A stretch of DNA of 64,000 nucleotides from a virus: positions 1 through 64,000 of IMG/VR virus record IMGVR_UViG_3300009130_000014; one strand, given 5' to 3'. A program made the translations under genes and the position numbers. The notes below the pieces were generated by a model that saw only the letters and a list, made by a program, of their open reading frames with translations, had not been told where the DNA came from and ran no database searches. Positions within the stretch are counted from its first letter, which is position 1; each line of letters starts with the position of its first letter. This document shows, piece after piece, positions 1-49,351 of this stretch.

Positions 1-50
1 TGTTTTATTTCGCAAGTTGTCTTTACGTCTTTTTTATCTTTGTAAATCAT
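1..50 (-). CDS. 5' part of a small cassette gene running off the window edge (MIYKDKKDVKTTCENK...)
   Basis: ATG at 48-50 on the minus strand after an A-rich leader, just beyond the attC-like site at 70-121; frame open to base 1. Confidence 0.5.
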   Translation of the reverse strand, partial: MIYKDKKDVKTTCEIK

Positions 51-69
51 ATCTTTATTTATTAATAGT

Positions 70-121
70 AGATAACAATCTGTATAAGCGCATTAAAACG
101 CACTATACAGTGGCGTTATGT
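70..121 (+). repeat. attC-like palindromic site A (52 bp)
   Basis: AGATAAC (70-76) ... CTGTATA/TATACAG and GCG/CGC stems ... GTTATGT (115-121); the TAA stop of the neighbouring minus-strand gene lies in the core (116-118). Confidence 0.7.
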
Positions 122-301
122 GCAATTAAATAATAAGTGTCTAAGTATAGATATTTGTGCTTTTATTTCTACTTCGTTTTTATCTAAATCAGATAAAGTA
201 ACACCAATCACTTCGCCTTTACCAAATTTATCATAAAGCCTATTAACTTCTAATAATTGTTCTTCTTTAAGACTTAAAGCTTCTTTTACTTTCTTTTTCA
301 T
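116..301 (-). CDS. cassette-borne hypothetical protein, 61 aa (MKKKVKEAL...LLFNCT)
   Basis: C-terminal part of track ORF 116..433; ATG at 299-301 follows an A-rich leader, and the upstream extension is just translated palindrome. Confidence 0.7.
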   Translation of the reverse strand: MKKKVKEALSLKEEQLLEVNRLYDKFGKGEVIGVTLSDLDKNEVEIKAQISILRHLLFNCT

Positions 302-320
302 ATTTTTTTGTTTAAAAAGA

Positions 321-385
321 GCATAACAACGTGTCATACTCCATATTCCGCTTTGCTCCATACAGAGCATACACAAGAGTTGTAT
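321..385 (+). repeat. attC-like palindromic site B (65 bp)
   Basis: GCATAAC (321-327), arm GTGTCATACTCCATAT / ATACAGAGCATACAC with one extra C (extrahelical G on the bottom strand; mismatches become G-T pairs there), GTTGTAT (379-385). Confidence 0.75.
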
Positions 386-401
386 GCAATTAAAAAAAGA
401 C

Positions 402-615
402 ATACAACATTGTATAAAAAAGAATACGCTCATTCAGTTAGTGCTTTATACAAAAACATTATTTCTAATGTAACGTCCTTTTCACATTTCTTACACCTAA
501 AGTTAGCTCTATCCTTTCTGTACCATTTAGCCTTACAGCATAATGTTTTGGCTTCGGCAATTTTTTTGTCTATTTCATCCATTCGCTTTATTCTTTTTAT
601 ACGTTACCGTTATGT
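402..615 (+). repeat. long attC-like site C (214 bp) with a coding loop
   Basis: ATACAAC (402-408), arm GTATAAAAAAGAATA (412-426) / TATTCTTTTTATAC (589-602) with one extra A, GTTATGT (609-615). Confidence 0.65.
430..582 (-). CDS. 50-aa Cys-rich (CC...CxxC) putative zinc-binding protein inside the loop of site C
   Basis: Hand translation: MDEIDKKIAEAKTLCCKAKWYRKDRANFRCKKCEKDVTLEIMFLYKALTE*; below the ORF-track cutoff; fills the loop almost exactly. Confidence 0.6.
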   Translation of the reverse strand: MDEIDKKIAEAKTLCCKAKWYRKDRANFRCKKCEKDVTLEIMFLYKALTE

Positions 616-783
616 GCAATTAGCTTTTAGCCAATCTCCACGCTCTTTTATTTTTTTGTCTATTTCTGCTATTTCTTCTGGATACCATTTTCGGTCTACC
701 ATTTCCTTAATTTGTATATCTGCCTTAGCTTTTATTAGGTCTTGGAAAACCTTATCTTTTAATGTAGCTTTTTTGTAATTCAT
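610..783 (-). CDS. cassette-borne hypothetical protein, 57 aa
   Basis: Hand translation: MNYKKATLKDKVFQDLIKAKADIQIKEMVDRKWYPEEIAEIDKKIKERGDWLKANCT*; ends NCT* in the core site, as the 116..301 gene does. Confidence 0.7.
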   Translation of the reverse strand: MNYKKATLKDKVFQDLIKAKADIQIKEMVDRKWYPEEIAEIDKKIKERGDWLKANCT

Positions 784-813
784 AGTTAACTCATTTTACA
801 CAAGCGTTAGCAA
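784..813 (+). repeat. partial attC-like site D (right arm only)
   Basis: TTTTACACAAGC-GTTAGCAA (core 806-813); no convincing left arm found. Confidence 0.45.
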
Positions 814-1060
814 CATTACAATCTTCAATGTTTGGTAATGTTATAAAACCTCCTTTGTAGTCAAGTATCAAAGTTTCTTCATCATCATCATACTTTAATT
901 TACCTTTCACTTTACCTGTAGGGTGATTGTACTCTATTTCAATATCAGATAAAGAACGTTTGCTAACAATATGTAAATTCAAAAGCTCTTGTTTTAGCCA
1001 TTCGATTTCACTTTCCTTTAGGTTTGTATGTCTTAATAAGTCTTCTATTTCTTTTTCCAT
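791..1060 (-). CDS. cassette-borne hypothetical protein, ~89 aa, starting inside site E
   Basis: Track ORF 791..1081 with first ATG at 1058-1060; LLNLHIVSKR is the translated left arm of site E and NVANA the translated core of site D. Confidence 0.7.
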   Translation of the reverse strand: MEKEIEDLLRHTNLKESEIEWLKQELLNLHIVSKRSLSDIEIEYNHPTGKVKGKLKYDDDEETLILDYKGGFITLPNIEDCNVANACVK

Positions 1061-1089
1061 CGCTTCAAAATTTACATTCAACGTTATAA
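961..1089 (+). repeat. attC-like site E (129 bp) with a coding loop
   Basis: TGCTAAC (961-967), ATGTAAATT (971-979) / AATTTACAT (1069-1077), GTTATAA (1083-1089). Confidence 0.65.
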
Positions 1090-1097
1090 AGAATTAA

Positions 1098-1451
1098 CTA
1101 TCTACTAAACCTTACTTTTGAAATCTTGTGTTTTCTTTTCATAAATTCAGTTATAACCTTCTTTTGGTTTTTATCAAAATAATAATTTTTAACATCAACA
1201 AAAGCAGTGTTAATTATAAAAAAAGGCTCTGTTTCTGCTTGTGAAAAACCATACATATTATTAACCTCTTTTACTTCTTTTACTTCTACATTTAGAGTGT
1301 TTATTAATCCATTATATAAATCGTCATCTTCAACAACACAAGAATCAACTAACCAATTATAGTATTCTTTATTTTTTTCTAAATCACTTTCTATACTAGA
1401 TATTCTTTTTCTTATTAATTGTATTTCTTTTATTTTTATTATTTCGCTCAT
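1098..1451 (-). CDS. cassette-borne hypothetical protein, 117 aa
   Basis: ORF track; flanked by complementary cores GTTATAAA (1083-1090) and TTTATAAC (1462-1469). Confidence 0.75.
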   Translation of the reverse strand: MSEIIKIKEIQLIRKRISSIESDLEKNKEYYNWLVDSCVVEDDDLYNGLINTLNVEVKEVKEVNNMYGFSQAETEPFFIINTAFVDVKNYYFDKNQKKVITEFMKRKHKISKVRFSR

Positions 1452-1461
1452 AATATTAAAA

Positions 1462-1469
1462 TTTATAAC
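1462..1469 (+). repeat. terminal inverse-core half site of the cassette array
   Basis: TTTATAAC is the exact complement of GTTATAAA at 1083; no matching right arm downstream. Confidence 0.45.
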
Positions 1470-1542
1470 ATGGTAAGAGTATTAAAAAGAGCCTTTTATA
1501 ATGACTTGCTCAGGTCTACCCTACACATTATGCTTGTAAGGG

Positions 1543-1695
1543 TTAGTTTTTATGTATAAATAGATAAATATTAATTGCCATGTAAGATGATACACTACAT
1601 AATAAATGAACTATTGTTATAGGTTCATTATAATGATATGATGAATAATCTATGGTAATTAATAATATTAATATACATGTTAAAATATATTTCAT
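1543..1695 (-). CDS. small hydrophobic (membrane) protein, 50 aa
   Basis: Hand translation: MKYILTCILILLITIDYSSYHYNEPITIVHLLCSVSSYMAINIYLFIHKN*; A-rich leader. Confidence 0.4.
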   Translation of the reverse strand: MKYILTCILILLITIDYSSYHYNEPITIVHLLCSVSSYMAINIYLFIHKN

Positions 1696-1720
1696 GTTGT
1701 AAGGTTTTTGTTAATAATAT

Positions 1721-1752
1721 AAAAAAAGAAGCTACTATACTTCACTTCTTTT
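1721..1752 (-). terminator. possible weak intrinsic terminator
   Basis: Minus strand AGAAGT...GCTTCT stem followed by a T run, downstream of 1774..2541. Confidence 0.35.
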
Positions 1753-1773
1753 AATCAACATAATGTGTTTGTT

Positions 1774-2541
1774 TTATACTTCGTCTAAGAAATCATAAAG
1801 ATCTCCGTAGATAAGTTGACCGTTATAGTTCATATTATTCTCATTTAGTTTACTTATGTATTTATTATATACCTTAGATGCTGCATTTTTAATATCATCT
1901 GAAGATATACGAGCTTTATTACTAAGCTTACCTCTTAAGTAAGCCAATTCTACCATATTAATGATATCCTTTTCAGTTATATTATCAGGTAATTTTTTTA
2001 AGTTTTTCATAGTTATATTATTCTTTCTACTTTCATATCTTTCAATCCTACCACATTTCTGAATATAAGGCTCGGGCTCAACCCACACAACCTCGTTGTT
2101 TTGGAGTTTTGGAAACCAAATATCAGCAGGAAATCCAGGCCCAATTTCTTCATACTCCAACTCAACCTCTTCAGGCTGATGCCTAACATAGTATTCTATG
2201 AGTGATTTAGGGATTTGAGGTATTTTGTTCTGTACTTCATTACCTCTCATAACTCTTTGCATTCCAGCATGAAGCTTAGGATCAGTTGTAGCTATGATTT
2301 TATGATATTTTAAGTCACTACAATCAGAACTTCCTTTTACCATGCTTTCTTGTTTCTCTCTCCACTTTTTTGTATTATGTATTGGATAAGAGTAAAATGC
2401 AGACATAAACCAATCACCCTCTTTTATCTCATCATCTGAGAGTATGTAGAGGTATTTAAGGCTATCATATTTACCAGAAGTTAATTTAACTCCTGTTTTA
2501 TCCTCAGTAGGCAACATTACTATTTTATGTTTCTTTTTCAT
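1774..2541 (-). CDS. hypothetical early protein, 255 aa
   Basis: ORF track; overlaps the adjacent gene in a coupled operon. Confidence 0.8.
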   Translation of the reverse strand: MKKKHKIVMLPTEDKTGVKLTSGKYDSLKYLYILSDDEIKEGDWFMSAFYSYPIHNTKKWREKQESMVKGSSDCSDLKYHKIIATTDPKLHAGMQRVMRGNEVQNKIPQIPKSLIEYYVRHQPEEVELEYEEIGPGFPADIWFPKLQNNEVVWVEPEPYIQKCGRIERYESRKNNITMKNLKKLPDNITEKDIINMVELAYLRGKLSNKARISSDDIKNAASKVYNKYISKLNENNMNYNGQLIYGDLYDFLDEV

Positions 2542-2812
2542 ACTTAATTAGTTTAGTGTTAGACCAAGCAGTTTCTCTAGTTGGCATAGTTCTTTCTATT
2601 GTTATTTTAGGCTTATCTCTTCTTAATGAGTCAACAAGATTTTGTATTCCATCTTTAGATATATCATCTATAGAAGGCATAGAAGAAGGTGTTATTATAG
2701 TTGAGTCTAGATCAAGAGTCGCTAACATACTTTGAATCATTTTAATAATAGCATTGGCTCCTGTATTACTAGGAGCTAACACTTCTATTTGTATTCTATT
2801 GTTCTTTTTCAT
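2525..2812 (-). CDS. hypothetical protein, 95 aa
   Basis: ORF track; overlaps both neighbours. Confidence 0.7.
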   Translation of the reverse strand: MKKNNRIQIEVLAPSNTGANAIIKMIQSMLATLDLDSTIITPSSMPSIDDISKDGIQNLVDSLRRDKPKITIERTMPTRETAWSNTKLIKYEKET

Positions 2813-3308
2813 TATTAATCATTTTTAATGCTTTTAATAATCCAGCTTCAAGAGCCTGTTCGTAGGTGTCCCACCAACTCATAATGGAAAAAGAATCTTT
2901 CTTTTCATTAAAATCCCAAGAATCCTTCTTTCTTCCTTTTTCACAATTAGTGGTTATATCCCATATGTAGGCGTATTCAGAGTCGTCTATACAAGTGTAA
3001 TGAATACATAGCTTAATCTCATGAACCTCTCTCAACCATCTTTGTAGTAATGATTGGGTTGTAACTGTATAAGCCTCAAAATACTTAGGGTTATTTTGAC
3101 AACCAAAACATCCTCCACCATTTTTAGTAAATACCAAGTCTTTCTTATTCCAGTTTTCTTTACTAGCTAAATCATATCCATCATAACCATTAGGCTCGTC
3201 TTCATTTTTATGAAATTTATCACCAATGTATGCTGTATAAGTAGGAATATCAAATCCCTTCTCCTTAGCTAACTTAGCTGTTTCAAATGATATTAGTTCT
3301 TCTTTCAT
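2796..3308 (-). CDS. hypothetical phage protein, 170 aa (ISFETAKLAKEKGF...TQSLLQRWLRE...TYEQALEAGL type)
   Basis: ORF track; motif pattern recalled from Bacteroidota phage hypothetical proteins. Confidence 0.8.
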   Translation of the reverse strand: MKEELISFETAKLAKEKGFDIPTYTAYIGDKFHKNEDEPNGYDGYDLASKENWNKKDLVFTKNGGGCFGCQNNPKYFEAYTVTTQSLLQRWLREVHEIKLCIHYTCIDDSEYAYIWDITTNCEKGRKKDSWDFNEKKDSFSIMSWWDTYEQALEAGLLKALKMINNEKEQ

Positions 3309-3488
3309 TTTAGTTTTGTTTAATGTTTAATAGATTACAGTTTAGTAAGGTATCAAAGGTTTCTCACACCTTATCAACCTTACTAATTAACTGGATACAA
3401 GGCCCTTTGGCATATTATAACTACTTATTGAGAAGTAAGTAATTAAGCCCTAACATCGTAACCTTAGTATCATATGCATCCGCCTTCG

Positions 3489-3571
3489 TAACCCAGACAT
3501 GAATCGAACATGTGACACACGTTCTGCCTTTCGACAGTCATTACGCTGCTCTACCACTGAGCTACTGGGTT
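3489..3571 (-). tRNA. tRNA-like RNA with an aberrant anticodon arm (no canonical 7-nt loop)
   Basis: Minus strand AACCCAG-TA-GCTC AGTGGTA GAGC-A-GCGT AATGA CTGTC GAAA GGCAG A ACGT-GTGTC-ACATG TTCGATT CATGT-CTGGGTT-A; perfect acceptor, D and T arms; CCA not encoded. Confidence 0.8.
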
Positions 3572-3745
3572 ATGGGCTAGGTCTTTTAAAGAGTTCCCAA
3601 CCTTTTCTCCACTAGTCTTTCCGAGTAGTCAAGAGATAACTTCCCTAGTGCCTCTTACACTGTATCCCTACTAACTAGTATTCGGAATATACACAATTTG
3701 AGCTTCATTGATAGGCTTGTGTGGAATTTGCAAAGAGTTTAATTG

Positions 3746-3997
3746 TCCCCAACAAGGTTGTAATCCTTGTAACCATACACTAAGGCACATGTATTCATTT
3801 ATACACACTTTATCTTTATCTTCGATGTTATTATACAATATGGGCATTTACGCTTGACAGTATAATAACACTCCTTAGTGTATAGTTAGTTATTAAAGCC
3901 TCTAACGTTTTAGACAATACTGAATATAATTTAATCAGCGTAAATCACTTATGCAAGCAGCTCGTTAGTGGCGATAATCCTACAATTGGATTAGGGA
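3746..3997 (-). ncRNA. putative ~250-nt structured RNA
   Basis: Nested inverted repeats 3771-3785/3873-3887 (15 bp) and 3826-3836/3860-3870 (11 bp), hairpins 3753-3769 and 3975-3993, closing helix 3746-3752/3991-3997; mismatches are G-U pairs only on the minus strand. Confidence 0.5.
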
Positions 3998-4126
3998 AAT
4001 ATTTTATATTAAGGTTTTACAAGGTTATAATAGATTGTTAATTAAGGTGAAGGTGAAGTAGGATAAAATGAATAAAAAGCTATATTAGTTATGACTTAAT
4101 AAAACTTGATGATGAAGGAGACTCTC

Positions 4127-4169
4127 GAAAAGAAGGGAAGGAGTAGTGAATACTACTCCTTAACTCCCT
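4127..4169 (-). terminator. intrinsic terminator or stable hairpin after 4175..4444
   Basis: Perfect 10-bp stem AAGGAGTAGT (4138-4147) / ACTACTCCTT (4152-4161), extendable, followed on the minus strand by CCCTTCTTTT. Confidence 0.6.
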
Positions 4170-4174
4170 GAGAA

Positions 4175-4444
4175 TCAACCCTTATAGCTTACTAACCACT
4201 TATTAGTGTAAGTATTAACTACTCCGGTATCTTGATCTACTACTTCCTTTTCGGATTCGCGTATAACCCATTGCTTAGGGTTAAAGTTAGCTAATAGTTC
4301 TTCTGCAATAGGCTCTGGTGTTTCAATAGAGAAGTAATCTCTAACTGTTACATTTCCTAATGGAGTAGATTCTACAGCATTGTACTCAATAGTAGATAAG
4401 ATAGTGTTTCTTTCAGTTTCGAATGTTCTTGTGATCTTTGTCAT
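4175..4444 (-). CDS. hypothetical protein, first gene of the leftward unit, 89 aa
   Basis: ORF track; followed by a terminator hairpin. Confidence 0.75.
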   Translation of the reverse strand: MTKITRTFETERNTILSTIEYNAVESTPLGNVTVRDYFSIETPEPIAEELLANFNPKQWVIRESEKEVVDQDTGVVNTYTNKWLVSYKG

Positions 4445-4926
4445 AATTATATTGTATAGGTTTAAGAGGGGTATACCACAACTCCTCAGTATCTAGGGGG
4501 AGGTTTGAATAGGGTGCACACCGATTTTAATCACGCATAAAATTTTTCAAAAAATTAATAATGAAAATTAGGGGGGGGATAATATAAACCACACCCATGT
4601 TTTTAAAAAGGATAATATAAGATCATATATAAATGTTATAATTATTATCACGGGATAAGTGAATAATAATTAATATTATAAAATAATAAAGTTAACCATA
4701 GATAATATAAGAAGGGATAGTAAATAAGATATGGGTGAAATCTAGCTTTACACTATCAAAAACAAAGATTTTAAGGTATTTTCCCTTTCCTCTATATAAT
4801 CACACCGAGTATATAATATACTCACACCGAGTATAAAAGTTATTCGTATGATGAAATATTTACACCAAAAGGTGTAAAGTTTATAATTTTTTTATATATT
4901 AGCATATAAATCAAAAACAATAAATT
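4445..4926. promoter_or_regulatory. divergent control region (strand switch) with ACACC repeats and hairpins
   Basis: Direct repeat TCACACCGAGTATA at 4800-4813 and 4822-4835; palindrome TTTACACC-AAAA-GGTGTAAA at 4859-4878; TATATTAG at 4895-4902 resembles the Bacteroidota -7 box TAnnTTTG. Confidence 0.6.
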
Positions 4927-5121
4927 ATGAATGTGCAAACATTGAAGGCTATCTTAAATAAGAATGTAAGTGGCCAAGCAGGAGTAAAAATCATATTTAA
5001 AAACAAAGAATATGATTTATTAAGTGTAGTTAAAGGAGCTGAATCTATCGGTATTGTAGTTAATACTGGAGAAATTGAAGAACCTGAAGTAAAAGTAAAA
5101 ACAGAAGAAGGAGATGAGTAA
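4927..5121 (+). CDS. hypothetical protein, 64 aa
   Basis: ORF track; first gene of the rightward operon. Confidence 0.7.
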   Translation: MNVQTLKAILNKNVSGQAGVKIIFKNKEYDLLSVVKGAESIGIVVNTGEIEEPEVKVKTEEGDE

Positions 5122-42577: not shown

Positions 42578-45500
42578 ATGGCTTGTACATATAATTATAA
42601 AGGAACTCAGTATACTCAAGAAGAATATATCGAACTACTAAAAGAAAGTAATAAAACTTTAAATGATGAAATTTCTCATATAAAAGAATTACTACCGAAT
42701 GCCCCTGTTAATATCGTTAACGGATTGTTACAAATCCCAGGTGGTTTTGCAGAAGGAGTGTTTGATAAAAACATGATTATACTAAGTGATGAGGCAGAAA
42801 GTGGAACTGCTTATCATGAAGCGTTCCATTATGTTTCTCAACTTTATTTAAGCCCAGAAGGAAGAAGAAAGCTATATGATTCTTTTAAAGGATCTGTTAA
42901 TATATCAGATGCTCAAGTAGAAGAATTACTTGCTGATCAATTTTCAGATTATATGAAAGGTAGAGTAAGCACTAAGCTTCATCCTGTAGTAGAATATTTC
43001 TATAACCTGTTACAAGATTTCCTTAACTTATTTAGAAATGAAAAAAATAAAATATTTAATAACATATCTAGAGGGAAATATTCATATAAACCTACAAGTC
43101 ATTCAGAATCAGTTCTTTATAAAAAATCAGAAAATTTAAAAGGTTTATCTGAAGAATGGGTAAATGACATGGTTCAGTATATGAGTATGTCTATGGTAGA
43201 ATATTCAGGGATCATAGCCGATGCAAGTGAAGGGGTAAATGATTTAGAAATAATATCCGATCAAATATATAATGATATATTTGACGCATATGAAAAGGCA
43301 AAAGCCGACGGTAATTCTGATATAGCAGGTCACTTATACATAGCCACACAAGAAGGTAAATTTGAAGATTTAATAGATTTAGCTAAAAAAAGATTATCTC
43401 AGTTTAAGATAGCAGAGGAAATTAAAAAGAAAGAATCACTAAACGAAGAGGCAAAAGAAGAAAACCTTTCTGGAGATCTTGGTTTAACTAGTTCTTTGAA
43501 TATATCCGCAAAAAATAATGCAAGGGCGGAGACAAGAATGATGTTAACATTCTTACAAGATTCTAGCTATGATTCTAAATTCTTTGGAGATTATATAAAA
43601 GCACCTTTAGATTTTTCTAAAAACTGGAACATATTAAGCAAGGAGTTATCAGGAATAGTAAGTACTAATGAAGAGACAGAAGGTCAGTTAATGTTAAAAA
43701 AGGTTAAGTCTTTATCAAAAACTCACCCTCAGTTTAAAACATTATATTCTATGTTAACTAGTGATGAGGTATTAGATTCTACTAAAACTAAATTCTATTC
43801 TTCTTTCTCTAATGGTAGGATAGATTATATAGGAGGTATTATACAACATCATAAGTCTAAAGCAGGTAAGGACACTAGTATTTATAAGCAGACTACAGGA
43901 GATGAACAAAGTGTTTCTAAAACGTTGATAAAAGAAGGCGTTAGTTCTTTTATAGATATATATGGAGAGAAACCTGATTTGGAAAGAATGACTGCTGCAG
44001 CAAAAGCTTTACACCAAATATCAAAAGCGGTAGATGATTCTTTTAATACTAACGATAAAGAAATACCTAACGAGTTAATAGATCAGATTATATATAAAAC
44101 ATTGCCTAGTTTTTTCAATAGGCTAGGTCTAAACATATCAGGGAATGCTATAGCAGATTATGCAAATACTAAAAGTTCAGATAAAAGCATCCAATTAAAG
44201 AAGCTTATGAAAGAGCTTTCTTATGCTATATATCCTAAAACAGGACATAAGGATTTTTCTAAATTAAGAACTACTAAGTACGACGGAGAAACATTATATG
44301 GATCTCATGTTAAAGGATTTGATGCGGATAAGAATTTCATTAATAATACTTCAATAATGAAAAACTTATTTAAACATCAAGCTACTTATAGTGATTTACC
44401 AGGAGACAATTCTGTTTTAGGTCCTGACGGGAATATGTATTATAAGGAAACGCAAAATAGTATGGCTGTTAAAACTCTTCAGCGTTTTAAAAACGGAGAG
44501 CTTTTTGATCAAATGTTAAACAGCAGATACCATAGATATTCTGAACTACTTAAAAAGGTAGCAAAAGATTATGAAGCTTCTAAAAATAACCCAAATGCCT
44601 TTTCTTTAAACTTAAGAACTTTCTTATTTAATAAGACAGAAGGAGAGGCTGGATCGGAAGCTACAGGAAAGGATATATTAAGTTTGGACGAACAGCTTGA
44701 TAGAATGAATAAAGTACTAAGAGGATCTGTCGCTAAGGGTAAGTCTATATACACTATCCTTACCATGGCTGATAAAAGTACTATACATCATTTAGCAGGA
44801 GCAGGGTTTGAGCGTTTTTCATATAATGAAGATAATACAACAGCGGTTGATAAATTTTATAATTATGCTCTTGCTGAGATAGAACGAATATCAATGAGTC
44901 TCAGAGATGACTCTGTTTCCACCATAGATTTTTATGGCACAAAAGATAATAATTTAAAATCTTTCTGGTTTCCAGAACTTTCTAAAGATGGAAATTTAGC
45001 AAAAGAAATAAACTTATATAACGAAGACGGTACCGCTAATACTCTAGCGTCAGCAGAACGTATAAAAGACTATATAGAGTCAGTATTAGATGAAAGAATT
45101 AAAGCAGAAGAGTCTTACATATCAGACGCATTACGTGATGAAGATGGATATATTAAAGGTATAGACAGAGACATACAAAATGAATATAGGATACTAGAAG
45201 GCGATAAACTTGTAAAAGACTCTGAGGATGGTTATACATATAAAGACGGTATGTCGGATCTTATTTCAGATTACGCACTTAATTCAATAATTAAAAATAT
45301 TGAGTTTACTATGTTATTTACAGGAGACCCTGCATTTTATAAAGATTTATCAAAACGTACCCCTGCTACTATCGCTACAGGGTATGATTTAATATTGGAT
45401 AATATAAGAAGAAAGTTCAAAGTAGCAGTAGGGTCTGATATAGAACTACAATCATCTTTGTATGACGAATATAAAAAATACTTTGAAGATAATAACTTAG

Positions 45501-48500
45501 ACCCTGATGTATTAGCTCCTTATGATAAAAATGAGGATCTTGGTAGAGACGGAGTAAATCAAGCAGATGCTCAAGGATATATAACACCTGAAAGGTTTAA
45601 AGAAATAGCCATCGGATTAGGGAAATGGGAAAAGACTAAGCATGATAAAATATTCAAAGCTTTAAACGAAGGAAGTACTGATCGAGATTACCTTCTTGAA
45701 ATTCAAAAACTAATAACTGAAATGGGAGTTCCTGAAGGTCAACCTCTTAAAGGAATGCATTTTGAATTAGTTAAAGACGGAGATGTTATGAGACCTGTTT
45801 ATTTAAAATACTCTCAGGCAGTATTATGGCCGGGTGTTATAAAAGGTACTAAACTAGTAAAGTTAGCTTCTGCTATGAAATCTAGTAAGACTGACGAATT
45901 TGTATTTAAAAGTGGAGTTAAGGTAGGTTCAAAAGATGTTTCAACTATAGATTTTAATAATATAAAACTATCTCCTTTTGAACTAGATAATTTTTATTGG
46001 AAACTTCAACAAGATCTCCCTTCTAAATATCATAAAAAAGGAAGAGCTCTTGTAGGTTCACAGCCTAAAAAAAATATCATAGCTAATATAACAGATAGGA
46101 TGATTGGAGACAGAGAAGGTCGTGAGGTAGCGCAAGATGTACATAGAATAGAAGGAATGCTTTCTGATATAGAAAAGGATATTCTAGATTCTAAATGGGG
46201 AGTAAGGAATAATAAAGCAAACAAAGATTATATCTTAAAAGATTTAATAGAAGGGTTTAGAGAAGAAGATATCCCTGAAAATATTATAGAAATGGCTGAG
46301 GCAGGTGTTCCTTTAGACATGATCTTACAGAGATCTACTCAGATTGATTCCATGCTTCATTCTAAAATAACTAAAGCAGTAGTTAAGTTAAAGAGTCCGG
46401 GAGGAGCTTTTGTCCAAATGTCTAATGCAGGTTTTTCTAAAATGACAGGAATCTCAGATCTTACCGACTTACCTTTAGATGATTTAAATGGGGTAATTCA
46501 CTTAAAGAATGTAGACGAATTAAAAGGTCCTAGAAAAGTAAATGGAGTTACGGTTCCGGGAGATGTTTATCTGCCCCATAGTGTTATTTCTGATTTATTT
46601 GAAGCAAAGCCCGAGTTAAACGATAAGCTAAAAGCAGGAACTTTAAAAGGTAGTGATGTAGCTGAATATTTAGGCGATACCATAGAGAATCTTATAGGAT
46701 ATCGTATTCCTAACCAAGGGATGTCGTCTATTGATGTATTAAATATTGCAGGTATACTACCTCCTCATATGGGCGATACTATAGTAACCTATACAGAAAT
46801 TACAGCTAAAACAGGTTCCGATTTTGATATTGATAAAATGTATGTAATGATGCCACATACAAAATATAATAAAAAAACCGGATTGATGGAAGTTATAGAT
46901 ATGGATTCAGATGAACTATATTTTCAGATACACGATTTAAAAAAGAAATTAAAAGAAGGTAGGGGCGAAGTAGGAAATAAAAAACTTCAACAAGCTATAT
47001 CTTCTAAAACAGAACTATTAAAAAAGGCTTTAGAGAACGAAAGAATCAAAATATGGGGAGAAATTCTATTAGCAGACGCTACATATGGAGATTTAGTTAC
47101 CCCTCTTGATTCAGAGTTTTTAAAAGACGATGCATATTATATCTCATTCTTAGAAGAAATAAGAAAAAACCCAGGAGAAGTTTCTGGTATATTAGATATG
47201 AGAATCGAAGATGTATTAAAGAGTTCTAATAGAATGGAACTTTCTAAAAAATATTTTAAGAATAAACCTGTTAAGGCTTTAGAATTTGCAAGTCCTTCTT
47301 ATCAATTAGAGGTTAAGAAAAGAAACATGGCAGGTAAAGCAGGTGTAGGTCAAACAGCCAATCACCTTACTCATCATGCACTAGCTCAAGAAGCAGAACT
47401 TTACTTGAAGTATAGTTTAGGGGTAGGTAACCAAGTGAGTAACCAAGATGGTAACCTAGTGGATTTGAGCGGTACCGATGTAGAAGAAAATGCTAATACT
47501 CAACCAAAAAGAACTATAACAGGAGTTATATCGGCTTGGTTAAATGCCTATGTAGATAATGCAAAAGATCCTTATATCAGTTTAATTAATAATAATACAA
47601 AGACTGCCAATACTGTATTTCTTATGTTACGTGCAGGAGTTAGTCCTGAATTTGTTAATAGATTTATAAGCCAGCCTCTTATTAAAGAATATATTGAAAC
47701 TGAATTTGAATCAGATAATAATGCGGTAGATACTATTTTTAAAGTAGGTAAAACTAATAAGGTTGTTGAAGGAGTTGTATCTTCTGTAGATAGCGGTACA
47801 GAAACATCTTTTCAAAAAGTTACTAATAATTCTGAAGATACAAGTGTAGCAGATTTAAGATCTTTTGATATAATAAGCTTAGAGGATCAAATTTTAAACT
47901 ACGATGAAGCAAGTCCTACTCAAATTAGTCTATTAAATAAATTCTTAGAAATTCAAGATGCTGCAAATAAACTTAACGAAGCAGTAAAAGCTAGTAAAGC
48001 AGATACAGAGGGAACTTACGGGAACAGTGCCGGTAACTTTATAGCACGTCAGAGAAAGAAATCAGTTGAATCAGAAGGGTTTGTAGGAAACTTTAGTAAA
48101 TTATTTGATGGGACTATGTTAGGTGTATTTCATGATAATAGTGTAGAAAATGCTAAAAATGTATTAAGTGGACTCACTATATTAAAAACACCTTTTGCAG
48201 AAAAATCAGTAAAAGATATTGCTTATATAACAGGTTTAAATAAAGATGGATTTGTAACTAATGAGAAATTAGTCAATAAAGTATATTCGGGGTTGAAAAC
48301 TTACATGTACGGTAAGTATGCGGGTTTTGATATTAACGATGCTACAAGAAGGGTTATATTAAAGCGAACTCCTGAATTTTTAATGCAGTTAAAACAATCA
48401 CATCCTAATAATCCTCTTGTGAAAGCACTGACTCCTGTTCAAACTAAAGAAGGACTTAAGATATCTCTTCGATCTAAAGTTAAATCAGGATATGAATCTG

Positions 48501-49351
48501 ATGTATTATCGGGAGCATGGTTAGATTTACTTTTACATGAAGATCCTTCTATTAAAGGATGGGCTGAAACTTTAATTAAATATTCATTTTTAACTTCAGG
48601 ATTCTCCAAAGGACTAAATACATTTTTTGATATAATCCCTTCAGATTATTTATTAAAAAGTGATATGAAATCACACATTAATGAATTTATAAGAGGGTCT
48701 GAAGTTAGAGAAAATACAGAATTTGTTGATCAGTTTATGAGAAATAACTGGGATGATACAAGTCTTGTTCCAAGATTTAAAAAATTAGAAGATATGGGAG
48801 CTAAGATAATATCTGTTAAAACTAATGCGGCTCATGGATTTTACATTGAAAAGGATGATGTGTCTTCACGTATGATGAAAAACGACATAATGCACTCTTA
48901 TGTAACATATGATACAGGATCTGAAATTAGAATGTATCAATATATGGGAAGGCAAGATGATCGTCATATTTATAATAGGGTTTCTAAATTATCTAAATCA
49001 GATAAAGGATTCAAAGAAATAAATTATGGTAATACATTAAATCCTTTGAATGAAGATCTTAAAACATTATCTTTAAATGATTTAAAAGGATCTAATCGTA
49101 TAAATGATTTAAGAGTATCTAAACATATACATAAGAAGGATATTGGAACAATGGATATTAAAGGAGACACTTTTACATTTTCTGATATTCCTGGAAAGTT
49201 TAATATAAAGGGGAATACTCTTAATTATAATAATAAACCCGTGATGGATCTGTATTCAGATACACAAGAAGAGTTAATTAAAGAAGCAGAATTTTCCTTA
49301 AGGTCTATAGGATTAGATATAATTCAAACTTATATAAATAATAATTGTTAA
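42578..49351 (+). CDS. virion-packaged two-barrel RNA polymerase with an N-terminal zincin-like domain
   Basis: Catalytic GSDFDIDK (DFDID at 46820-46834), GYRIPNQG, DAQGYIT and AYVDNAKDP as in phi14:2 gp66-type RNAPs; HEAFH...EELLA at 42815. Confidence 0.93.
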   Translation: MACTYNYKGTQYTQEEYIELLKESNKTLNDEISHIKELLPNAPVNIVNGLLQIPGGFAEGVFDKNMIILSDEAESGTAYHEAFHYVSQLYLSPEGRRKLYDSFKGSVNISDAQVEELLADQFSDYMKGRVSTKLHPVVEYFYNLLQDFLNLFRNEKNKIFNNISRGKYSYKPTSHSESVLYKKSENLKGLSEEWVNDMVQYMSMSMVEYSGIIADASEGVNDLEIISDQIYNDIFDAYEKAKADGNSDIAGHLYIATQEGKFEDLIDLAKKRLSQFKIAEEIKKKESLNEEAKEENLSGDLGLTSSLNISAKNNARAETRMMLTFLQDSSYDSKFFGDYIKAPLDFSKNWNILSKELSGIVSTNEETEGQLMLKKVKSLSKTHPQFKTLYSMLTSDEVLDSTKTKFYSSFSNGRIDYIGGIIQHHKSKAGKDTSIYKQTTGDEQSVSKTLIKEGVSSFIDIYGEKPDLERMTAAAKALHQISKAVDDSFNTNDKEIPNELIDQIIYKTLPSFFNRLGLNISGNAIADYANTKSSDKSIQLKKLMKELSYAIYPKTGHKDFSKLRTTKYDGETLYGSHVKGFDADKNFINNTSIMKNLFKHQATYSDLPGDNSVLGPDGNMYYKETQNSMAVKTLQRFKNGELFDQMLNSRYHRYSELLKKVAKDYEASKNNPNAFSLNLRTFLFNKTEGEAGSEATGKDILSLDEQLDRMNKVLRGSVAKGKSIYTILTMADKSTIHHLAGAGFERFSYNEDNTTAVDKFYNYALAEIERISMSLRDDSVSTIDFYGTKDNNLKSFWFPELSKDGNLAKEINLYNEDGTANTLASAERIKDYIESVLDERIKAEESYISDALRDEDGYIKGIDRDIQNEYRILEGDKLVKDSEDGYTYKDGMSDLISDYALNSIIKNIEFTMLFTGDPAFYKDLSKRTPATIATGYDLILDNIRRKFKVAVGSDIELQSSLYDEYKKYFEDNNLDPDVLAPYDKNEDLGRDGVNQADAQGYITPERFKEIAIGLGKWEKTKHDKIFKALNEGSTDRDYLLEIQKLITEMGVPEGQPLKGMHFELVKDGDVMRPVYLKYSQAVLWPGVIKGTKLVKLASAMKSSKTDEFVFKSGVKVGSKDVSTIDFNNIKLSPFELDNFYWKLQQDLPSKYHKKGRALVGSQPKKNIIANITDRMIGDREGREVAQDVHRIEGMLSDIEKDILDSKWGVRNNKANKDYILKDLIEGFREEDIPENIIEMAEAGVPLDMILQRSTQIDSMLHSKITKAVVKLKSPGGAFVQMSNAGFSKMTGISDLTDLPLDDLNGVIHLKNVDELKGPRKVNGVTVPGDVYLPHSVISDLFEAKPELNDKLKAGTLKGSDVAEYLGDTIENLIGYRIPNQGMSSIDVLNIAGILPPHMGDTIVTYTEITAKTGSDFDIDKMYVMMPHTKYNKKTGLMEVIDMDSDELYFQIHDLKKKLKEGRGEVGNKKLQQAISSKTELLKKALENERIKIWGEILLADATYGDLVTPLDSEFLKDDAYYISFLEEIRKNPGEVSGILDMRIEDVLKSSNRMELSKKYFKNKPVKALEFASPSYQLEVKKRNMAGKAGVGQTANHLTHHALAQEAELYLKYSLGVGNQVSNQDGNLVDLSGTDVEENANTQPKRTITGVISAWLNAYVDNAKDPYISLINNNTKTANTVFLMLRAGVSPEFVNRFISQPLIKEYIETEFESDNNAVDTIFKVGKTNKVVEGVVSSVDSGTETSFQKVTNNSEDTSVADLRSFDIISLEDQILNYDEASPTQISLLNKFLEIQDAANKLNEAVKASKADTEGTYGNSAGNFIARQRKKSVESEGFVGNFSKLFDGTMLGVFHDNSVENAKNVLSGLTILKTPFAEKSVKDIAYITGLNKDGFVTNEKLVNKVYSGLKTYMYGKYAGFDINDATRRVILKRTPEFLMQLKQSHPNNPLVKALTPVQTKEGLKISLRSKVKSGYESDVLSGAWLDLLLHEDPSIKGWAETLIKYSFLTSGFSKGLNTFFDIIPSDYLLKSDMKSHINEFIRGSEVRENTEFVDQFMRNNWDDTSLVPRFKKLEDMGAKIISVKTNAAHGFYIEKDDVSSRMMKNDIMHSYVTYDTGSEIRMYQYMGRQDDRHIYNRVSKLSKSDKGFKEINYGNTLNPLNEDLKTLSLNDLKGSNRINDLRVSKHIHKKDIGTMDIKGDTFTFSDIPGKFNIKGNTLNYNNKPVMDLYSDTQEELIKEAEFSLRSIGLDIIQTYINNNC

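Follow-up and report, generated by a model that had tools for sequence, protein, structure and literature searches.

What kind of element encloses a complete small gene between two arms that are complementary to each other? The question is raised near the left end of the window, by which we mean the whole 64-kb stretch of DNA analysed here, the first 64 kb of an 89.6-kb viral record (94% complete) from seawater metagenomes. A 50-codon gene on the minus strand lies between the arms of an imperfect palindrome, and a shorter palindrome follows it (Table 1). The initial annotation took the larger palindrome for an integron-type recombination site whose loop acts as a cargo compartment in an otherwise empty cassette. 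Its coordinates and geometry were reproduced, and the ORF with its CC and CxxC motifs, the arms and the 14-nt spacer all lie where it placed them. Two of its descriptions have to be amended. The ORF, which it called unannotated, is carried as a called gene in related contigs, and the empty cassette at 379–408 is a hairpin in its own right.

The source genome is, from the proteins it encodes, a marine crAss-like phage, because the ORF at 42578–49351 has its match in gp66, the virion RNA polymerase of Cellulophaga phage phi14:2 (6VR4, E 6e-115) and because terminase, portal and major head (capsid) proteins are encoded in the same 89.6-kb genome. Genes at 5.1–65 kb are read from the plus strand, and those at 1–4.5 kb and 65–89.6 kb from the minus strand. 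In phi14:2, the block read opposite to the virion genes belongs to the early, replicative class (bioRxiv 10.1101/2020.03.07.982082). By analogy with this early module, the 50-codon gene, which lies in the matching minus block, would be an early gene. Positions 1–5000 of the window gave no near or distant DNA match in cultured phages, except for 76 nt in phi18:3.

Several other features are found at this end of the genome. Within the early block, an 870-nt stretch (3309–4175, minus strand) is free of ORFs. Sequence resembling tRNA, especially at 3489–3580 (minus strand), has clear acceptor, D and T arms, and ARAGORN made no call there. In the early region of phi14:2, there are long, highly transcribed non-coding stretches. 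Positions 4450–4920 form a divergent control region between the minus and plus blocks, with direct repeats (TATACTCGGTGTGA twice and several copies of TTATATTATC) and a C-run. At positions 1–100, 320–381 and 1401–1500, the contig depth in four seawater metagenome runs is 10–30 times that of the surroundings, with many different loose ends, and these three segments are common to many other genomes in those seawater samples.

The 50-codon gene and the block that carries it

The initial annotation regarded the ORF as a complete gene, and this is borne out. A protein search gave 23 homolog clusters with 68–90% identity to the 50-aa protein, and K6, I8, K12, T13, C15, C16, K23, R25, F28, R29, C30, C33 and D36–E40 are invariant. 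DNA was retrieved for 15 loci of the gene family. By the Nei-Gojobori method, dN/dS lies between 0.02 and 0.3 in almost all pairs; for instance, L010 and L014 are separated by 14 synonymous and 4 non-synonymous differences. From the 23 homologs, the four invariant cysteines and these ratios, the gene is therefore real, conserved and under purifying selection.

An AlphaFold2 model from a 24-sequence alignment (pLDDT 91) consists of a helix, a Cys knuckle, a β-hairpin and a helix. With the CC and CxxC pairs invariant and a modelled β-hairpin between them, the product may be a small zinc-ribbon-like protein; the zinc-ribbon-like rows in the PDB are weak, with E above 1. Foldseek of the model against the PDB returned nothing below E = 1, and the matches in the Atlas were viral hypothetical clusters only. 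Pfam and PHROG gave no family for the protein or for the neighbouring small ORFs, and tblastn of the protein against cultured phages found no match. A fused form occurs on a 46.7-kb viral contig (L006/L019, 2890–3153), where the C-terminal 31 residues of the protein, from WYRKSRANFRC, are joined to an unrelated N-terminus. In this fusion the C-terminus is longer and the CC pair is gone.

The homology between loci extends beyond the gene and then stops abruptly. Among L010–L014 and L018, identity of 88–96% is confined to about 190–225 nt, and the flanks do not align at all. The 5′ arm begins 20 nt before the ATG and the shared block 20–30 nt before it; on the other side, the block reaches just beyond the 3′ arm. 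By tblastn, no other protein of this genome was matched in any homolog locus, and two homolog-bearing viral records, of 44.5 and 46.7 kb, are without a gp66 or capsid homolog. Because the homology ends at the arms and no other protein is shared, the arm-ORF-arm segment is a discrete portable block in unrelated phages. In this respect the initial annotation, which had pictured the loop as a cargo compartment, was right, for the block is the sole homology between otherwise unrelated contigs. Gene exchange at such cassettes is a possible reading of the unrelated neighbours of the module, of the position at which its homology ends and of the chimeric hairpins, and we infer that the module is mobile. 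No module-less joint was found among the contigs of four seawater metagenome runs.

Arms and hairpins around the gene

Table 1. Features near the left end of the window, in the order in which they are read on the minus strand.
Feature	Position	Strand	Description
Upstream 57-aa ORF	783->610	minus	Ends ...NCT*, with the stop inside the half box; no Pfam or PHROG match
Half box TAATTGCACATAAC	622->609	minus	3′ loop part and right stem half of a P2-type hairpin, without the left half
5′ arm GTATAAAAAGAATA	602->589	minus	7–20 nt before the ATG; begins with a GTATA box
50-aa ORF	582->430	minus	50 codons, TGA at 432->430; CC at residues 15–16, CxxC at 30–33
3′ arm TATTCTTTTTTATAC	426->412	minus	Begins 3 nt past the stop, ends 3 nt before the hairpin; TATAC end
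Intercistronic hairpin (P2)	408->379	minus	Stem GTTGTATG/CATACAAC; 14-nt loop, a divergent form of TCGTTTTAATG
Second arm pair, geneless	331..374	minus	About 10 bp with one bulge, loop of about 24 nt; directly 3′ of the hairpin
Short hairpin, geneless	80..110	minus	GTATA.../...TATAC stems, TTTTAAT loop; positioned as gene-holding arms are

The half box overlaps the stop codon of the 57-aa ORF and forms the 5′ boundary of the module. The AAC box CACATAAC ends 6 nt before the 5′ arm. The GTATA box that opens this arm also follows the conserved hairpin in other phages. The 5′ arm is separated from the ATG (582) by AAGCGA, the TGA from the 3′ arm by GCG, and the 3′ arm from the hairpin by AAT, so that the hairpin begins 22 nt past the stop codon, on the strand of the gene. 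Read on the plus strand, it consists of GTTGTATG at 379–386 and CATACAAC at 401–408 with 14 nt between. It forms in both RNA and DNA fold predictions, and a near-identical hairpin is present in the viral contig L139.

Paired elements without a gene lie further downstream. The segment 320–381, which spans the second arm pair, is common to many other contigs of the same seawater metagenomes. The short hairpin at 80–110 comes after a second half-box copy (115–130), and geneless short hairpins of this kind are also found in L011, L038, L090 and phi39:1. Within 116–330, a 61-aa ORF (301->116, minus strand) apparently lies inside a split copy of the conserved hairpin, with GTTATGC and TCTTTTTAA before it (327->312) and TTTAATTG and CACATAAC at its end (130->115). 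The 61-aa and 57-aa ORFs both terminate in the same box-encoded NCT*. The insertion of genes into split hairpin copies was rejected as a general rule, as a general test gave only 2 clear cases elsewhere.

The complementarity of the arms exceeds chance. The two arms form 14 pairs with one bulged U (14/15 complementary). For each of the 171 ORFs with 40 aa or more that the 89.6-kb genome contains, the 35 nt before the start were compared with the 35 nt after the stop; the 50-codon gene ranked first, and its score was reached by 19 of 5000 shuffles of its own flanks. Both arms are recognizable in 8 of 13 loci of the gene family (the window, L007, L008, L010, L012, L013, L014 and L018) and the pair is absent from the other 5. 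The arm score is at least 10 in 5 of the 8; one arm is altered in L014 and L018, and the pairing is shifted in L008. In L010, L012 and L013, the arms are GTATAACAAA and TTTGTTATAC, with variants in L014 and L018. Compared with the window, AAAAAG/CTTTTT is swapped for AACAAA/TTTGTT in the relatives, which makes two compensatory pairs. Over 7 sequences, and with these two compensatory pairs only, 89% of the arm cells are paired versus 39–67% with a slid partner, and the covariation score was matched by none of 500 shuffles. The 3′ arm is identical across L010–L014, though the synonymous sites of the ORF differ (pS 0.12–0.57). The expectation that the arms are conserved as a pair thus holds to the extent that 8 of 13 loci keep them recognizable, with two compensatory changes.

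Fold predictions for the arms depend on the program and the parameters. RNAfold did not recover the long-range stem of the 50-codon gene and paired the 3′ arm elsewhere (z −0.66), and RNAalifold prefers a local hairpin, GCGUAU/AUACGU, within the 3′ arm over the long-range stem. Folding with DNA parameters does recover the long-range stem, but with z of about 0. The arm duplex in the window is short and AU-rich, at about −9 kcal/mol over a 160-nt loop.

The intercistronic hairpin has relatives in many phages. Hairpins with the loop (TC)GTTTTAATG and differing stems adjoin the 50-codon gene in related loci. Viral contigs were scanned for exact matches to the pattern GTT-N6-TCGTTTTAATG-N6-AAC, and at least 120 of them carry it. 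In 121 of the 124 viral matches listed, 8 or 9 of the 9 stem pairs are formed, by dozens of stem sequences. Covariation was assessed on 100 copies, for which at least 8 of 9 pairs were required, so that 3 of the 124 viral matches were left out; all 6 free pairs covary, with 204 double-sided changes and 99% of cells paired, as in none of 500 shuffles. The hairpin runs in the same direction as the surrounding genes in 105 of 106 copies. It typically stands 15–25 nt (median 44) after a stop codon, and a T-rich box ending in TATAC lies upstream of it.

Among the 123 matches listed from genome assemblies, there are 55 true hairpins, most of them in Bacteroidota; the remainder are due to chance. The cultured carriers are Cellulophaga phages phi39:1 and phi19:1 and Nonlabens phages P12024S/L. 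In phi39:1 (L261, 28.8 kb), a single composite copy at 906–969, made of two hairpins with the same loop, separates gp03, with which the early, replicative block ends, from the small terminase gene. Rfam returned no family for the hairpin in six loci bearing it, at E up to 1. A covariance model (R1) of the 100 copies, all from other phages, had its best hit in the 64 kb at 438->373 of the minus strand, which covers the 3′ arm and the hairpin (20.9 bits, E ~0.03 with filters off; the loop is divergent, with 14 nt). On this match, the 3′ arm and hairpin of the window belong to the conserved hairpin family.

Five of about 250 hairpin matches (L026, L047, L084, L196 and L233) are chimeric, in that the left half of one common stem type is combined with the right half of another. 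They form at most 5 of 9 pairs, apart from L233 with 7 of 9. From their sequences, they resemble products of recombination with the junction in the conserved loop.

Other explanations of the hairpin were dropped. A promoter for the crAss virion RNA polymerase was rejected, as the element also occurs in phages without that enzyme, and a mimic of CRISPR repeats, as the stems vary and no arrays were seen. The box before the hairpin is not the tail of a conserved upstream protein, since the upstream ORFs are unrelated.

Leader-trailer stems in other phages and the rival readings

Complementary arms are not confined to the 50-codon gene. Where a hairpin picked by the exact pattern came after an ORF of 30 aa or more (76 cases), we used our own scripts to compare the 40 nt before the ATG with the 28 nt between the stop codon and the hairpin. 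The complementarity of leader and trailer averages 9.8 versus 6.3 in random pairings, and a score of at least 10 is found in 40 of the 76 modules versus 4% of controls. These stems measure 10–27 nt, with 25 bp in L075 and L212, and their sequences vary among genes. The ORFs in the 40 non-redundant modules have 40–233 aa and fall into 38 unrelated protein clusters. The 3′ arm usually contains or adjoins the stop codon, and the 5′ arm ends 3–28 nt before the ATG. In 37 of the 40 modules, no more than 14 nt separate the 5′ arm from an AAC box on its upstream side, and 33 of 35 modules elsewhere have the half box (TAATG-N6-AAC) ahead of this arm.

The 50-codon gene has the same constitution: its leader, no more than 45 nt from the ATG, is paired with the trailer between stop codon and hairpin, and an AAC box lies upstream. 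The GTATA start of its 5′ arm, the TATAC end of its 3′ arm and the 6-nt distance to the AAC box indicate that its arms fit the general family. What the initial annotation had seen here, a gene enclosed by paired arms, is upheld as geometry; the order is AAC-spacer-arm-gene-arm-spacer-GTT, and it recurs around 38 unrelated genes. In many 5′ arms (e.g. L184, L206 and L208), the sequence ...TATGAATAGTAAA... closes more than one reading frame with a stop codon immediately ahead of the enclosed gene, and it is the G residues of these codons that make G·U pairs with the 3′ arm.

The strand in which the stems fold can be approached through their imperfect pairs. Of the 68 non-Watson-Crick stem positions, G·T or T·G on the sense strand accounts for 52 and A·C or C·A for 1, versus 522 and 364 in shuffled-pairing controls (Fisher p 8e-11). 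The G·T/T·G share is 76%, versus 21% in the controls. Because G·U pairs number 52 and A·C pairs 1, the fold is selected in the sense strand only, most simply in mRNA, as is characteristic of an RNA helix. A fold of the sense strand as single-stranded DNA is conceivable in the strict sense, since single-stranded DNA also tolerates G·T mismatches. Taken with the layout, we lean, with modest confidence, toward reading the 50-codon gene as a portable early cistron closed by a leader-trailer RNA stem, the local form of a layout found in many Bacteroidota phages.

Alternatively, the element could act at the level of DNA as a cassette similar to PeSLs, the promoter-early stem-loops of T4-type phages (Arbiol et al. 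2010, PMC2839356; Comeau et al. 2014, PMC4122927). The hairpin would then be a terminator and the GTATAA box part of a promoter, with the arm complementarity a by-product of an A-rich leader and a T-rich trailer. PeSLs are likewise short conserved stem-loop cassettes between genes, which bracket small non-essential genes in plastic regions and through whose exchange genes are shuffled between phages. They combine a promoter with the stem-loop and mediate gene shuffling (PMC2839356). The present element is intergenic and runs in the same direction as the genes, its single phi39:1 copy stands where the early block meets the terminase operon, and TATAAA/TATATG-like boxes follow about 16 nt after TTAATG. 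However, covariation extends over as many as 27 nt of the arms around 38 unrelated genes and involves C-G/G-C as well as A-T pairs, and base composition does not account for the G·U excess over controls (76% versus 21%). A promoter at this place would start transcription inside the 5′ arm, and the hairpin has no T-run after it. Inspected by eye, the boxes gave no match to the Bacteroidota −33/−7 consensus, and no sigma-70, sigma-54 or −33/−7 promoter fitted convincingly. A PeSL is a sigma-70-like promoter with a terminator that act as direct repeats, and mini-circles have been shown for PeSLs, whereas the present cassettes have an invariant 11-nt loop, covarying stems and a leader-trailer stem of its own for each gene. 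A PeSL-like cassette is therefore an unlikely description of this locus.

The integron-like reading would make AAC-arm...arm-GTT an attC-like site in single-stranded DNA, used by a recombinase in trans, with the gene in the variable loop. The element and attC sites are both imperfect palindromes whose structure is kept while the sequence varies, as it does in the arms here, and both place AAC and GTT at the boundaries of gene units; the layout recalls R″-spacer-L″...L′-spacer-R′ with its AAC/GTT ends and unequal spacers. The outer boxes also pair in L010, the module is present in unrelated contexts, and the chimeric hairpins indicate exchange at these sites. Nevertheless, the 89.6-kb genome, which is 94% complete, gave no match to PF00589 (tyrosine recombinase), which was matched in 14 of 14 control genomes, and none to PF01797 (Y1 transposase), for which the controls also matched. 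The element also occurs in phages of other types. The flanking AAC/GTT boxes match at 2.5 of 6 variable positions versus 2.1 in shuffled pairs, and an attC-like pairing of the outer boxes was dropped as not above control.

Polarity and strand argue in the same direction. The pairing under selection has GTT 5′ and AAC 3′ within one 29-nt hairpin, the reverse of RYYYAAC...GTTRRRY in attC. The strand of an attC site that folds and recombines is the bottom strand, antisense to the cassette genes; here the fold is that of the sense strand, and on the other strand the G·T positions, in 52:1 excess, would turn into A·C mismatches. A cassette body would not be expected to be almost invariant, as the 11 nt between GTT-N6 and N6-AAC are, and the gene lies inside a palindrome, not between palindromes. 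The element is not an integron attC site, and this part of the initial annotation has to be given up on account of the missing integrase, the reversed GTT/AAC polarity, the sense-strand fold and the outer boxes at control level. A looser kinship, with a recombinase in trans, is quite improbable.

Least probable is a miniature transposon with terminal inverted repeats and a small passenger gene, similar to a MITE or to the MPMEs, the ultra-small mobile elements of mycobacteriophages with fixed 11-bp ends. Such elements also measure a few hundred bp, have inverted ends, carry a small ORF and lie at differing places in phage genomes. The module is about 200 bp long and stands in unrelated contexts between inverted repeats, at which its homology ends; but its arms are gene-specific, covary and differ among modules, so that a transposase would have no common end, no target-site duplication is visible at the junctions, no transposase was found in the genome, and strand-specific G·U pairing is meaningless for a double-stranded end.

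A proposed stem-enclosed cistron and its possible exchange

If the 50-codon gene is a portable cistron closed by a leader-trailer stem, its module would run in the order half box ...AAC, 4–6 nt, 5′ arm, ATG, 50 codons, stop, 3′ arm, 3 nt, and GTT...AAC hairpin. The arms would pair in the transcript and make the whole cistron the loop of a long-range stem, and the short hairpin would be the boundary between one cistron and the next. Each cistron in the polycistronic early transcript would thereby receive defined, paired ends and be shielded from its neighbours. It may also be excised by a double-strand-specific RNase, as rRNAs are from their stalks, and the stem may bring the stop and the start together. 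The role of the stem would thus be sought in RNA processing, insulation or stability. The nearly invariant 11-nt loop, judged from its conservation, probably binds a conserved host or phage factor.

RNase III stalks offer a comparison for such ends. They enclose the 16S and 23S rRNA in bacterial rrn operons, and the RNase III sites of T7 early mRNA are local hairpins between genes. To our knowledge, the long-range RNase III stalks enclose rRNAs and not protein-coding cistrons. In both cases the flanks pair over a long range with the gene product as the loop, and the stems would define the ends of units cut from a polycistron. The difference is that the stem in the window has 14 bp (others 10–27 bp), which is shorter than a typical substrate, and that the stems here are predicted ones.

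Exchange of modules could proceed through the hairpins. Short homology for this could come from the conserved hairpins, in the way that PeSLs supply it in T4-type phages (PMC2839356), and the five chimeric hairpins look like recent results of such events. Since both arms must travel together to keep their pairing, what is successfully exchanged would be arm-ORF-arm.

These findings relate to two known kinds of element, RNA processing elements between cistrons and regulatory cassettes that are mobile. The literature searched contained no account of the loop sequence, of hairpins between genes in Flavobacteriia phages or of inverted-repeat-flanked genes, and the hairpin and stem-enclosed cistrons in phages of Bacteroidota are apparently undescribed. 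More tentatively, since the wider proposal may well not hold, these phages might share a general RNA architecture. Accessory cistrons would each sit in a covarying stem of their own, separated by a near-universal hairpin with the loop UCGUUUUAAUG, and would form context-insulated plug-and-play cassettes that are exchanged between unrelated phages. The putative zinc-ribbon gene of 50 codons would be one such cassette.

Our analysis illustrates that an integron-like layout can arise from RNA structure, and caution is needed in calling attC sites from palindromes alone. The hairpin provides a simple sequence handle for accessory-gene regions in Bacteroidota phages, and its cultured carriers among Cellulophaga and Nonlabens phages make testing tractable. 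Should the stems act on mRNA, they would be the equivalent in nature of the RNA insulators with which synthetic biologists flank genes. They would also help to explain how phages swap small genes without broken expression, as the signals that fix the ends of each cistron travel along with it.
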